Below the pieces are notes generated by a model. The model saw nothing but the letters and a program-made list of their open reading frames with translations. It was not told where the DNA came from and searched no databases. From the NCBI GenBank assembly GCA_964462875.1, contig CAYWZQ010000003.1, positions 64,189 to 128,188 on the forward strand: a stretch of 64,000 nt of DNA, given 5' to 3'. This stretch comes from an uncultured Nitrososphaerota archaeon. Lineage in GTDB: Archaea > Thermoproteota > Methanomethylicia > Culexarchaeales > Culexmicrobiaceae. Position 1 is the stretch's first letter, and each line of letters starts with the position of its first letter. The position numbers and the translations under genes are program-made. Of the stretch, positions 58,930 to 64,000 are shown piece after piece.

Positions 58930-59406
58930 AGCTTAAGTGATACGCTTGACCAAACTGAATTCATTGTTGCGGATGAACCAGTATCAATGTTAGATGCATC
59001 AATCAGAACTGAAGTACTCAAGTTAATGCTCAATTTAATAAGAAAAACTAACTGCTCAGTCCTATACATAACCCACGATTTAGCACTAGCCAGGTATATA
59101 TGTGATAGAATAGCTGTAATGTATTTGGGTAAAATTGTTGAAGTTGGAGATGCAGAAGAAGTAATTAGAGATCCTAAACATCCATACACCAAAGCACTTT
59201 TAGCAGCAATACCAATCCCAGATCCAACTGCTAGAAAAACTAAAATACTAATTAGGGGCGATGTCCCAAGCGCAATAAATCCGCCAAGCGGATGTCGGCT
59301 TCATCCAAGATGCCCTTATGCAATTAAAAAGTGCGGTGAATTAGGGCCTGAAGTTGAACCTAAAAGACTTGTCGCATGTCACCTAGTTGAAAGGGGTAAA
59401 CTATAA
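58930..59406 (+). pseudogene. 5'-truncated oligopeptide/dipeptide ABC ATPase (OppD/OppF-like) gene fragment
   Basis: The ORF begins inside the Walker B region ('..EFIVADEPVSMLDASIRTEVLKLM...YITHDLALARYICDRIAVMYLGKIVE') and has the OppF C-terminal extension 'CRLHPRCPYAIKKCGE'. There is no Walker A upstream. The D-aminoacylase gene start is directly adjacent. Start is approximate. Confidence 0.5.
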
Positions 59407-59640
59407 CTCCTTCATGCACTTCAAGCAATATCTTAAAACATATTTCTTTGTATTAAAGTTTGCTTCAAAGTACTCTCTTATCTCGTCAATAGAGTTGAAC
59501 TGAAGCCATCCACCGCGGATTTTGATTCTACCAATGCCCTTCACATCTGTTTCTTTTATTCTACGCGTAAATGGGCAATTGCTTCTATGAATAGTACATA
59601 TTTTTGTTGGAATATCGACATTTAACCAATACTTTGACAT
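59401..59640 (-). CDS. small Cys/His-containing hypothetical protein
   Basis: 79 aa with 'CTIHRSNC' and a C-terminal 'CLKC', a possible zinc site. Confidence 0.3.
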   Translation of the reverse strand: MSKYWLNVDIPTKICTIHRSNCPFTRRIKETDVKGIGRIKIRGGWLQFNSIDEIREYFEANFNTKKYVLRYCLKCMKEL

Positions 59641-60465
59641 GGCAGTATCAATATATGGTAAAAGGATTTATATAAATTTTAGGATATCAAAATATTTACT
59701 TCAAAATTATTATCTTATACTCCATTTACTCTTAAATCCAACAATTAAAACTTTAAAAGTCAATTAAGGAATTTCAGAGGCTCTGAATTGGAAATAATCC
59801 AGTAGAGCACTAATTTATGAGAGTTATTTCAAGATAGTTTTTGCACTATGTGACTTATTACTGAGGAATATCATTAATACAATATTATTTAACTTAAATA
59901 CATAAATAATTATGAGACAATTAGATTTGAAATTAATGCGTCTAATCAAAGTTCCATAATGGTAGTTTATTAAGCAATTCATTAAAGTTACTTCCTTATC
60001 GATGCTTATATTTAAATATCTTTAGTACGGAATTTTGGTACATAAAAACTGTACTTGCCAAAGTATATGCTGAATGCAAAATGGGTTTAAAGACTTTAGA
60101 AGTGGGTAAATAGCAATGAAAACTAAGCTTGACTGTTATAAAATGGTGAAGTAAAAGTGTTTTTAGCTTTCTGCCATTAAATGAGCGGGAAGGCAGTGTT
60201 TTCGGTCATTGAGGTCCTCATTCATCATCTGTCAGGAAGGGAGACTTCAATCATCCCATGGCTCAGATTAGGATGTGCTCCACATCACTTTCGGACCACT
60301 AGCGGCTCTTCATTGCCAGCAGAATTTAATTAGAGTGTTAAAGTTAAATTTTTTATGTTTTATGTATATGCACTTCATTATCAAGCATGCAAGTTTAAGC
60401 TTTGCATGTTAATGCAAAAGTTTAAAAGCAAATTTATTTAATGCTAGTCCGAGCTGGGGGAATGT
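59641..60465. other. 825-bp ORF-free AT-rich intergenic region with divergent promoters, a 7-1-7 palindrome (TTCAGAG-G-CTCTGAA near 59773) and a ~150-nt GC-rich island (about 60180-60330)
   Basis: No ORF of 60 aa or more on either strand. The palindrome was read directly. The GC-rich island 'ggcagtgttttcggtcattgaggtcctcattcatcatctgtcaggaagggagac...ctttcggaccactagcggctc' contrasts with the flanking sequence, which is more than 75% AT. Confidence 0.3.
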
Positions 60466-60705
60466 TTGTTCATGGCGCTTGCATATGTGCTAATTACTGC
60501 GGAAACTGGTACTGAAGGGGAGTTATTGAAGGAGCTCATGAAGATTGAGGGCGTTGAGGAGGCATATATTGTCTATGGAGTCTATGATATTATAGTTAAG
60601 GTTAAGGCTGAAAGCATAAAGAAGTTGAAGGAAATAATTTCGTGGAGAATTAGGAGGTTACCTAAAGTTAGGTCTACATTAACGATGATGGTTGCCGAGT
60701 TTTAA
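60466..60705 (+). CDS. stand-alone RAM-domain protein (Lrp/AsnC C-terminal ligand-binding domain)
   Basis: 'VLITAETGTEGELLKELMKIEGVEEAYIVYGVYDIIVKVKAESIKKL' is the AsnC_trans_reg fold, and the protein lacks an HTH. Confidence 0.55.
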   Translation: MFMALAYVLITAETGTEGELLKELMKIEGVEEAYIVYGVYDIIVKVKAESIKKLKEIISWRIRRLPKVRSTLTMMVAEF

Positions 60706-61778
60706 GGTATTATTTCAGTTGTATTATTAAATTGTGGGTAGAGGAGCTCTTCAATGGGGATTATCCCCCTACTAATTAAGTTCTGAATTTCATTTTTAAC
60801 CTTAAGTAATTCATTTATCATGTGAATTGTAGCTCTACAAATACTTCTAAACCCGCTCTCACCCCACAGTTTCTCCATGTATGCATATAGGCATCTACCA
60901 CCACAATACCTGAAGTATTGGCAACTAATGCATGGTTCACCTATTCTAATTCTATTAACATAGTTTTTCCATGAGCTCCCCCATATGCTGCCGAGCTCAG
61001 CCCATTTTTCTTCAACTGCTATTGGGCATGCGAGAACTCTTCCATCAGTTGAAATGGCTATTGAAGATGATCCTGAACCGCATGGTGGAGATTCAATCGG
61101 CTTATTGAGAAGCATGTATTTGAGAACTCCAATGAAAGGTACTAGACCTAAAACTTCACCATTATGTGCACTATTAACCCAAAACTTTATGAGCCTTGAA
61201 ATTCCCGGTAAATAGCTCTTTTCAAGCCAGCCATTAAAGTCTATCCAGCTGCAGCTCCAAACAACATTTAATTGCCAATGAATGTGGTCGAAGAGCCCTA
61301 GGGATAGTAGGTGCATGACATCAACGTATATGTCGCTTAGCTCTGAAACAGTCATTCTAGCAATTAGGTCCCCATTAAAACCTATGGACTTAAGCTTCCA
61401 TGCTGCTTCAATAACCCTCCTATAAACACCCTTCCCCCTATAATGGTCTGTGACTTCCTCCCTTCCATCAATTGATAGCAGTATTGTATTAAATCTCCTC
61501 CAGTAGCTTGATGGCAGCTTATCGATTAGTAGGCCATTTGTTTGAATGACGTATTTGGCCCAGTCAATTTCATCCATAACTTCAACTATGAAATCCGAGT
61601 TGAGCAGTGGCTCGCCACCATAGAAAGCAATAATTGGACTGTGATCTCCATCAATAAATTTCCGTAGATCTTCAACGCTGTACTTGACAGTCCATGGAAC
61701 AATTTTAGGGTTGAAGCTTCCACCGCAATATGTACAGTTCAAGTTGCACTGTCCAGTCGTAAACACTATGTATAGCAC
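60702..61778 (-). CDS. radical SAM enzyme with C-terminal SPASM domain (peptide/protein maturase-like)
   Basis: CxxxCxxC appears at the N-terminus as 'TTGQCNLNCTYCGG'. The C-terminal Cys cluster 'PCGSGS...ACPIA...CISCQYFRYCGGRCLY' is SPASM/twitch-like. Confidence 0.7.
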   Translation of the reverse strand: MLYIVFTTGQCNLNCTYCGGSFNPKIVPWTVKYSVEDLRKFIDGDHSPIIAFYGGEPLLNSDFIVEVMDEIDWAKYVIQTNGLLIDKLPSSYWRRFNTILLSIDGREEVTDHYRGKGVYRRVIEAAWKLKSIGFNGDLIARMTVSELSDIYVDVMHLLSLGLFDHIHWQLNVVWSCSWIDFNGWLEKSYLPGISRLIKFWVNSAHNGEVLGLVPFIGVLKYMLLNKPIESPPCGSGSSSIAISTDGRVLACPIAVEEKWAELGSIWGSSWKNYVNRIRIGEPCISCQYFRYCGGRCLYAYMEKLWGESGFRSICRATIHMINELLKVKNEIQNLISRGIIPIEELLYPQFNNTTEIIP

Positions 61779-61796
61779 AGATTAAAGTTATCTTGG

Positions 61797-62474
61797 ATGA
61801 AATTTAAGCTTAATTTGACGCTTGAATTTAAGCTATTAATTGCCTTTATGTCAACCATTATAGTTGCCTCCATAACTATATACTATGCAATGCCGATGGA
61901 CTTGAAGTATGAGGTTATAAGGAGATCTCCTTTTTGGCCAATAATATCAATTGTAATCCACCTATCGGAGGAGCATTTATGGATAAATATTGCTGGATTA
62001 ATATTCTGTGCTATTTTACTCGCACTCTTGAATGTTTACTTCGGGCTTCTATCTTTAAAGTTCAAATTGAGTGGTTTACCTGAAGTTTTAAGGAGAATTA
62101 GTGTTGCCTTGCTAGCTTATCCGCCAATAATGCACATAGTCACTCTCTCGATAGAGGAGCTGTTTTCACCATTAAATTTCAGAGCTGCGGGGATGTCCCT
62201 CATAGTGTTCTGTATTTATGGCTTCAATTTATCACTCTGGTCAACTACGCTTATCATATTTAGCTTAGCTGGGAAAATGAGGGAGTTTAATATTAAGCTG
62301 GCCGCTTGGCTGATAAATGTTTCACTGGCAATAATGATTTCCTTGATAACTTATCTCAATGAAATGTCTGAGCATGCAGTAGCAATTTTAACTAGCAGTC
62401 TTATTGGGACATCAATATACTTAAATTCAATTCAAAAATTCACTGAAAACCTTTTTGAATCTAATAGTGCATAG
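61797..62474 (+). CDS. hypothetical polytopic membrane protein
   Basis: 225 aa with about 6 TM helices. The true start may be the internal 'MSTIIV'. Confidence 0.4.
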   Translation: MKFKLNLTLEFKLLIAFMSTIIVASITIYYAMPMDLKYEVIRRSPFWPIISIVIHLSEEHLWINIAGLIFCAILLALLNVYFGLLSLKFKLSGLPEVLRRISVALLAYPPIMHIVTLSIEELFSPLNFRAAGMSLIVFCIYGFNLSLWSTTLIIFSLAGKMREFNIKLAAWLINVSLAIMISLITYLNEMSEHAVAILTSSLIGTSIYLNSIQKFTENLFESNSA

Positions 62475-63174: not shown

Positions 63175-64000
63175 CTAATTTGAATTATTGCTTTTCCTAA
63201 TAAACTTGTACACAACTCCCCTCCTCAACACCTTAACAATCCACAATTTATTTAATAACTTCCTCAAGTAACTGTAGGTTCCATCATCATAAACAACTAC
63301 CCCCTCATGTAATGCTAATAGAATTGTCGGATCTCCACGCTTAATAGATTCAACCGCATCACTAACAGTGTAAATTCTAAAGTCAACTAATGGTTCATGA
63401 AATAACTTAAATACTTCATTGAAATCATTTATCTCCATTTCATGCAGTACTAATAAAACATCTACATCGCTCCAAGGCTTCCAGTCACCTCTAGATCTCG
63501 AACCGAAAACAATTGCACATGCTAATGGAATGCATTTAGAAATCCTCTTAACATACTCCGCAATAACATGATCAATATTTCGCCCAAATTCATCAAATCC
63601 AAATTTCGGTGGGTCTGTAATTAACTTCTTAGCGATCTCAATTAGCTTCTCAATAACTTCCAACACTCTTCTCGCTTCACTTACATCTCTATAGAATTCT
63701 TCAGAGAGACCCAGCCTTAACCGTGCATTTGGATATCTTGAAGTGAAGTAGTGTATTGTCAAACTTTTCAATACCTCTATATCCTCACTGCTTAATCCTG
63801 CTAGCTCTCCATATTCCCTTACTACACAGTTATAAAGTAAGGATATGTCGTGCGACTTTATGAACATAGACTTTTTTGCCATTAATGATTTCAGAATTTT
63901 CTCAACTGCCTGTTGCATGTAAAAGTATGCAGCTTTAATTTCACTTAAATCAATGAATTTCCTAGCTCTCTCAAAATCTTCAATACCTTCCCTGAACCAA
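63175..64000 (-). CDS. HEPN-MNT fusion protein (HEPN domain + minimal nucleotidyltransferase), 5' end beyond window
   Basis: The reading frame stays open to nt 64000 ('...GIEDFERARKFIDLSEIKAAYFYMQQAVEKILKSL', the HEPN helix 1-2 pattern). HEPN R-x4-6-H region 'YFTSRYPNA'. C-terminal NTase motif 'AIVFGSRSRGDWKPWSDVDVLLV' (GS-x9-13-DxD). Confidence 0.6.
   Translation of the reverse strand, partial: WFREGIEDFERARKFIDLSEIKAAYFYMQQAVEKILKSLMAKKSMFIKSHDISLLYNCVVREYGELAGLSSEDIEVLKSLTIHYFTSRYPNARLRLGLSEEFYRDVSEARRVLEVIEKLIEIAKKLITDPPKFGFDEFGRNIDHVIAEYVKRISKCIPLACAIVFGSRSRGDWKPWSDVDVLLVLHEMEINDFNEVFKLFHEPLVDFRIYTVSDAVESIKRGDPTILLALHEGVVVYDDGTYSYLRKLLNKLWIVKVLRRGVVYKFIRKSNNSN

Follow-up and report, generated by a model that had tools for sequence, protein, structure and literature searches.

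A solitary TIGR04084 radical SAM/SPASM enzyme of an uncultured archaeon and its unrelated neighbouring genes

Among the characterised radical S-adenosylmethionine (SAM) enzymes with a SPASM domain, three are central to this study. CteB, the SCIFF maturase, and PapB, a ranthipeptide maturase, both form thioethers and have an adjacent cysteine-rich precursor and an N-terminal peptide-recognition (RRE) domain; anSME (4k36-4k39) has a radical SAM core followed by a SPASM domain with two auxiliary clusters, and no RRE. We have analysed a stretch of 64,000 nucleotides from an uncultured Nitrososphaerota archaeon (assembly GCA_964462875.1, contig CAYWZQ010000003.1, positions 64,189 to 128,188 of the forward strand), here called the window, that encodes a radical SAM/SPASM enzyme (rSAM). 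CteB and PapB are its closest characterised relatives by sequence, and it shares with anSME a similar size and the domain architecture. An initial annotation had described rSAM as an orphan maturase whose substrate might be encoded by one of the neighbouring genes. The enzyme is indeed an orphan, as no precursor is present and NCBI names its family, TIGR04084, only by number; its neighbours have no tie to it. The gene has the following position:

60702-61778, minus strand: radical SAM/SPASM enzyme (rSAM), 358 amino acids, GTG start, TIGR04084 member

The identity of rSAM as a SPASM-domain radical SAM enzyme is borne out by a match to the Pfam Radical_SAM model (PF04055, E-value 2.2e-14, 54.4 bits, above the gathering score of 29.5) and by a seven-cysteine SPASM motif. 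Classification by hidden Markov models, a check that the initial annotation had proposed, places the protein in TIGR04084 ("rSAM_AF0577" of NCBIfam release 20.0; 492.9 bits, E-value 4.4e-148, cutoff 225) and not in the anSME, PapB or SCIFF maturase families. The match is end to end: rSAM residues 5-358 align to profile positions 1-347 of 347. TIGR04084 is already catalogued and rSAM is a further member; the literature on TIGR04084, AF0577 and archaeal SPASM enzymes contained no characterisation of the family that we could find. Length, cysteine pattern and C-terminal tail are the same in rSAM and in 17 other members, and no feature distinguishes the copy of the window.

The CxxxCxxC motif (C11, C15 and C18; 61725-61748, minus strand) is invariant in the alignment of these 18 members, and its cysteines are predicted to bind the SAM-cleaving [4Fe-4S] cluster. 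Equally invariant are seven SPASM cysteines (60837-61082, minus strand): C233, C251, C283, C286, C292, C296 and C314. Their spacing (C233-x12-G246-x4-C251; C283-x2-C286-x5-C292-x3-C296; C314) conforms to the pattern that defines the SPASM subfamily (C-x9-15-G-x4-C ... C-x2-C-x5-C-x3-C ... C after the radical SAM core), and this canonical half of the protein would, judged from its sequence, hold two auxiliary clusters. The Pfam SPASM model itself gave no match to rSAM at 0.01. The C-terminal tail, Y-P-x-F-N-N-T-T-E-I-I-P (60705-60740, minus strand), is strongly conserved: Y347, P348, N352, E355 and P358 are invariant and all 18 members end at the same residue. The AlphaFold (AF2) model of rSAM has a predicted local distance difference test (pLDDT) score of 86.5, with values below 50 for the last three residues.

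The public gene call of rSAM (P0001) has only 346 amino acids; it begins at a TTG that corresponds to residue 13 and lacks C11. As the homologues all begin with MLY..., the GTG at 61778 is the correct start. A copy from JGI (P0122), likewise of 346 amino acids, falls into the same cluster as the public call.

Database searches with rSAM returned 1227 matches, the best 120 of which (self-match aside) are 51-67% identical at 91-100% query coverage. A motif scan of species-representative genomes identified 512 rSAM-related loci; the best 80, each with 5-kb flanks, were used for all comparisons of loci. Nearly all of these 80 are labelled as archaeal metagenome-assembled genomes (MAGs) and they include Bathyarchaeia, Methanomethylicia, Culexarchaeia, Korarchaeia, Thermofilaceae, Nezha-, Brock- and Geoarchaeota, hot-spring Nitrososphaeria and DHVE2; the nearest genome copy among them, with 67% identity, is that of Ca. 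Culexmicrobium cathedralense. A homologue search that started from an "Aciduliprofundum" copy brought in no further taxa and led back to the Thermoproteota-like set already obtained. The rSAM family is strongly conserved (50-67% identity), and its gene stands alone in many lineages of anaerobic archaea. One locus, L059 (JAGGTC010000197.1), is labelled as a Deltaproteobacteria MAG and has a TIGR04084 gene in the order rSAM / winged helix-turn-helix (wHTH) / isochorismatase; the gene order is the same in L054, L067 and L080, which are loci of Thermoproteota and Crenarchaeota MAGs, and L059 is probably a mis-binned archaeal contig.

When the AF2 model of rSAM was used for a fold search, anSME (4k37) was the best match, over the full length (TM score 0.69, E-value 6e-16), followed by CteB and SuiB. 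The family profile, compared with PDB sequences, matched CteB (5wgg) best, with 97.5 bits, and anSME with 87 bits; within NCBIfam, the next match of rSAM after TIGR04084 was PapB (83.5 bits). The alignment of CteB to the family profile begins at CteB residue 102, and the residues before it are presumably the N-terminal RRE domain. rSAM is without such a domain, and the overall shape of its model is that of anSME. All seven SPASM cysteines of rSAM align with cysteines of CteB, and they also align with those of anSME (4k36/4k37). The fold and profile matches together indicate that rSAM combines the RRE-less architecture of anSME with a sequence and cysteine pattern closest to those of the thioether maturases.

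Despite the shared architecture, rSAM is not an anSME: the two are about 20% identical, the score for the anSME model TIGR03942 (50.3 bits) is far below the cutoff of 349.45, and the Asp that follows the second SPASM cysteine in anSME, which we take to be the proposed catalytic base, is replaced by a Pro that is invariant in the rSAM family (C251-P252). The Pfam families that the immediate flanking genes of rSAM match most often include neither sulfatase nor AOR. From CteB and PapB, rSAM differs in the absence of an N-terminal RRE and of an adjacent Cys-rich precursor and in scores far below the cutoffs of the respective models (340 for PapB and 425 for the SCIFF maturase). A leader-recognising maturase of peptides that are made on ribosomes and modified after translation (RiPPs), whether of the sactipeptide, ranthipeptide or PqqE-like type, was rejected, with the radical SAM motif starting already at residue 11, no RRE and no adjacent precursor.

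Several other identities were considered and dismissed. The GMGT synthase Gms carries an N-terminal extension, about 100 amino acids long, ahead of a core that resembles AhbD, and homologue searches for it kept only proteins of more than 400-420 amino acids (PMC11214058, PMC11186832); rSAM has 358 amino acids and no such extension, and its AhbD score is 37.4 bits at a cutoff of 500. Ted and Gmm are B12-binding radical SAM enzymes (10.1101/2025.10.20.683597) and were ruled out for this reason. For a "cofactor-modifying protein" next to tungsten AOR, a literature search found nothing usable.

The reading that we favour, with moderate confidence, is that rSAM is a solitary TIGR04084 enzyme that acts on a substrate encoded elsewhere; the likeliest substrate is a protein or peptide that contains Cys, and the likeliest chemistry is of the thioether type. 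The enzyme would cleave SAM reductively and abstract a hydrogen atom from a substrate supplied in trans; a Cys-containing protein or peptide would in this way acquire a thioether-type cross-link. The substrate may be recognised directly in the barrel, as in anSME, and not via a leader peptide. Thioether-type chemistry is favoured because CteB and PapB are the closest characterised relatives and because the seven SPASM cysteines align with those of CteB; the first auxiliary cluster of CteB keeps an open site for a substrate cysteine. By analogy with these enzymes we favour, at a likelihood somewhat short of even, a thioether-type cross-link in a protein or peptide that contains Cys and is recognised directly, as in anSME. 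More tentative still is the proposal that TIGR04084 enzymes install a new radical modification, for example an intramolecular thioether, on a housekeeping protein that anaerobic archaea encode elsewhere in their genomes, with the conserved tail (...NNTTEIIP) as an element for docking or gating. If true, a thioether-type modification of a housekeeping protein would be a new and widespread post-translational modification of archaea.

Four points weigh against the favoured reading. Both the chemistry and the substrate class are deduced from relatives with about 20% identity, and no substrate candidate was found in the 5-kb flanks of the best 80 of the 512 loci. Haem (AhbD), lipids (Gms, Tes) and other small molecules are likewise substrates of SPASM enzymes, and the missing RRE and the missing linked peptide gene are equally expected of an enzyme with a non-peptide substrate.

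The strongest alternative is a housekeeping enzyme whose substrate is a cofactor, lipid, sugar or RNA and not a protein, like AhbD, Gms, Tes, BtrN or MoaA; we consider it rather unlikely. The solitary and very highly conserved gene, the lack of both an RRE and a linked peptide gene and the presence of GDGT-MAS/Tes (7tol) among the PDB matches of rSAM are all consistent with such an enzyme, and a MoaE gene is found at a distance of 2-4 kb in six of 79 loci and a ModE-like helix-turn-helix (HTH) gene in four. However, the best relatives by sequence and fold, CteB, anSME and PapB, are all modifiers of proteins or peptides, AhbD reaches only about 37 bits, rSAM is neither Gms (length, extension) nor Ted/Gmm (B12-binding), and the proximity of MoaE is limited to few independent lineages and is never adjacency. 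At the level of the family, the enzyme is a strongly conserved, predicted three-cluster radical enzyme with no genomic clue to its substrate, a gap that is not made more testable here; the solitary gene redirects the search for the substrate from neighbourhood mining to phyletic profiling and proteomics.

Around rSAM, the initial annotation had named three further open reading frames (ORFs), and all four ORFs are present where it had placed them. The three neighbours are:

59401-59640, minus strand: Cys/His protein CH79, ORF of 79 amino acids
60466-60705, plus strand: RAM protein, 79 amino acids from a TTG, or 77 amino acids from the ATG at 60472
61797-62474, plus strand: membrane protein TM6, ORF of 225 amino acids

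The region is AT-rich (32-40% GC), and a metagenome contig from sample ERZ27248328 is a match to the window. The genes of rSAM and RAM are convergent and overlap by 4 nucleotides at their stop codons, the genes of rSAM and TM6 are divergent with start codons 18 nucleotides apart, and CH79 is separated from RAM by 825 nucleotides of AT-rich, ORF-poor sequence with a conserved non-coding element (59641-60465). Given this layout, RAM, TM6 and CH79 cannot share a transcript with rSAM. RAM had been described as lying immediately downstream of rSAM: the two genes are indeed adjacent, but RAM is not downstream in the sense of an operon.

To find genes that are conserved beside rSAM, the 2832 ORFs from the 80 loci were clustered all-against-all; recurrence, also that of the window's own neighbours, was scored over 79 loci. 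Apart from ORFs that overlap the rSAM gene, no neighbour cluster was found in more than nine loci; the largest clusters are RAM/Lrp, an ABC ATPase and a wHTH protein of 95 amino acids. Synteny around rSAM is confined to lineages, with restricted blocks such as a wHTH gene followed by a methyltransferase gene in one clade, a gene for a 243-amino-acid protein in Thermofilaceae and NikR in another clade. A Pfam scan of 72 upstream and 74 downstream neighbours identified scattered housekeeping genes, with top counts of 4 and 6, respectively. ThermoDBP-RP recurs in two loci, and homologues of TM6, CH79 and a HEPN-nucleotidyltransferase protein of the window (described below) in none. Of the two outcomes that the initial annotation had named as refuting its proposal, one, a neighbourhood that is not conserved, is what the 79 loci show; the other, a classification as a cofactor enzyme, is neither given nor denied by TIGR04084, a family with no assigned function. 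There is no local gene cluster of the kind proposed, and the window contributes a further copy of a family already catalogued.

Common to the window and to L014 is a core of ThermoDBP-RP / rSAM / RAM / conserved non-coding block, and, at some distance past this core, both also have GDT1 and two CbiA-ferredoxin genes. The syntenic core of ThermoDBP-RP, rSAM, RAM and C/D-box small RNA (sRNA)-like elements (see below) is common only to the window and to Culexarchaeia and Methanomethylicota MAGs. Specific to the window, in comparison with L014, are TM6 and a block that consists of an ABC transporter, an amidohydrolase, an OppF fragment and CH79.

RAM is unremarkable as a stand-alone protein with a RAM domain (Lrp/AsnC ligand-binding); by all the evidence it is a neighbour of rSAM and not a partner. 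It matches PF01037 (E-value 2.6e-14, residues 8-77), has no HTH and matches the solved stand-alone RAM proteins 2zbc, 2e1a and 2cvi (75-83 amino acids; E-values of 4e-20 to 3e-15), which have the same length and domain and from which no difference was found. A search with the RAM of the window identified a RAM/Lrp gene in six of the 79 loci. Only in L012, L014 and L026 (one Methanomethylicota MAG and two Culexarchaeia MAGs) does RAM abut rSAM in convergent orientation; L032 has the gene of a full-length Lrp 9 nucleotides upstream. A regulatory pairing in Culexarchaeia and their relatives, in which RAM would respond to an amino acid or metabolite and regulate rSAM at the level of expression or activity, is improbable. 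It could account for the contact between the two genes in the window and in these three MAGs, for the higher conservation of RAM (85% identity versus 61-67% for rSAM) and for the presence of an Lrp or RAM gene within 3.4 kb in nine of 79 loci, including L032; but stand-alone RAM proteins lack a DNA-binding domain, the two genes share no promoter because they are convergent, and nine of about 700 neighbouring genes, from about six independent lineages, are only a mild excess. Lrp-family proteins are numerous in archaeal genomes (0.3-0.8% of genes, by our own rough estimate).

TM6 is a membrane protein, as had been proposed, with about five hydrophobic segments (five by Kyte-Doolittle hydropathy) rather than the six of the initial annotation. 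An open frame as long as 225 codons would hardly arise by chance (about 0.0015 are expected in the window at its composition), indicating that TM6 is a real ORF. Its only match among 5.8 billion protein clusters was to itself, in a search that needs shared 5-residue words and that very distant relatives could escape, and no family match was found in four libraries. An AT-rich, TATA-like stretch for rSAM overlaps the first codons of TM6; given this overlap and the short distance of 18 nucleotides between its ATG and the start of rSAM, the true start of TM6 may be an internal Met. TM6 is absent from L012 and L014, in which ThermoDBP-RP is about 200 nucleotides from rSAM. It is thus a lineage-specific insertion between rSAM and the ThermoDBP-RP gene with no tie to rSAM, and a role as exporter or immunity component, which had been suggested for it, finds no basis in a protein without detectable homologue that is present beside none of the other family members and is missing from the closest genomes.

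CH79 belongs to a family of domains of about 75 amino acids with 172 representatives and no Pfam model, which are either stand-alone or fused, in some cases to DUF6308. Conserved are W-x-N-x-D, H18, C22, K-G, G-G-W and, in part, a C-terminal C-x2-C. The AF2 model is highly confident (pLDDT 95.5), and a comparison with solved structures gave no significant match to its fold. In the vicinity of two relatives of CH79 are genes for a TIR_2 protein and for a Dam methylase. The CH79 segment, like the TM6 segment, is absent from the closest genomes. As a compact, folded and widely distributed domain that is never found beside TIGR04084, CH79 is not the precursor of rSAM but an accessory insertion without tie to it.

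A short peptide, another substrate candidate of the initial annotation, was searched for in the window and in the related loci. None of the intergenic ORFs of 20-60 amino acids in the window has a Gly/Cys-rich C-terminus. Among 589 short intergenic ORFs from 74 loci there was no recurrent family besides RAM genes, wHTH genes and translated non-coding DNA, and there was no Cys-rich short ORF beside rSAM in any of these 74 loci. In several loci, genes flank rSAM so closely on both sides that there is no space for an adjacent precursor gene: the flanking gaps, in nucleotides, are -4 and 0 in L022, 0 and -11 in L037, 7 and 20 in L038 and 14 and 4 in L026. An ORF of 50 amino acids at 60181-60333 was rejected, as its frame is broken by 1-nucleotide indels in both L012 and L014. 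Conserved short "ORFs", such as ...GGGFEPP..., are found about 2-120 nucleotides downstream of rSAM in L053, L060, L072 and L077 and about 240 nucleotides downstream in L063; their sequence suggests translated tRNA-like sequence, and thus a putative tRNA gene, in a Nitrososphaeria-like lineage.

A local RiPP-like cassette, in which rSAM matures CH79, RAM or a short peptide from the 59.4-62.5 kb region while TM6 provides export or immunity, is therefore very improbable: SPASM enzymes often have adjacent substrates, yet physical proximity is all that favours the cassette here, while TM6 and CH79 have no homologues beside any of the 79 family members, TM6 has no detectable homologue at all and is missing in L012 and L014, CH79 is confidently folded with relatives in other contexts (TIR_2, Dam methylase, DUF6308 fusions), RAM is convergent and adjacent in three loci only, no intergenic short ORF of the window has the Gly/Cys-rich C-terminus of a precursor, and the sole conserved intergenic block carries frame-breaking indels.

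This block, about 120 nucleotides of non-coding sequence at 60199-60318, has counterparts of about 80% identity at L012:2604-2723 and L014:6429-6549; its place is always about 150 nucleotides upstream of the RAM gene. The 1-nucleotide indels between the window and L012/L014 break the reading frame and identify the block as non-coding. Its minus strand reads as two tandem archaeal C/D-box sRNA-like elements:

60260-60316, minus strand: C/D-box sRNA-like element 1, AUGAAGA-N12-CCGA-N3-GUGAUGU-N15-CUGA
60201-60256, minus strand: C/D-box sRNA-like element 2, with a C-like box, CUGA, AUGAUGA and AUGA in the window

A C/D-box sRNA was defined by the boxes C (RUGAUGA), D' (CUGA), C' and D, by guides of about 12 nucleotides and by a match to Rfam that exceeds the gathering score. 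The boxes and the 12-13-nucleotide spacers of element 2 are canonical in L012 and L014. At the positions orthologous to element 2, matches to the Rfam model snoPyro_CD lend support but remained below its gathering score of 45, with 30.8 bits (E-value 0.0045) for L012:2663-2720 and 27.7 bits (E-value 0.029) for L014:6488-6545, and an Rfam scan of the window gave no match at the two elements. The C/D-box sRNA-like elements are no part of the rSAM story.

Next to CH79, an ORF of 139 amino acids at 58987-59406 (plus strand) aligns to OppF/DppF-type ABC ATPases in their C-terminal part only (about positions 192-328 of the 334 of the profile). There is no room upstream for the N-terminal half with the Walker A motif, so that the ORF looks like the remnant of a gene, and it looks like the mark of a rearrangement boundary. 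Searches of defence and phage libraries found nothing specific; matches to pVip at about 40 bits were dismissed as generic radical SAM similarity. On the other side of rSAM, at 63175-63918 (minus strand), a HEPN domain (residues 2-98) and a nucleotidyltransferase domain (residues 120-176) are joined in one polypeptide. These two domains are usually encoded by the separate genes of a two-gene toxin-antitoxin pair. The fused protein has weak PADLOC matches to PDC-S09 and PDC-M05A.

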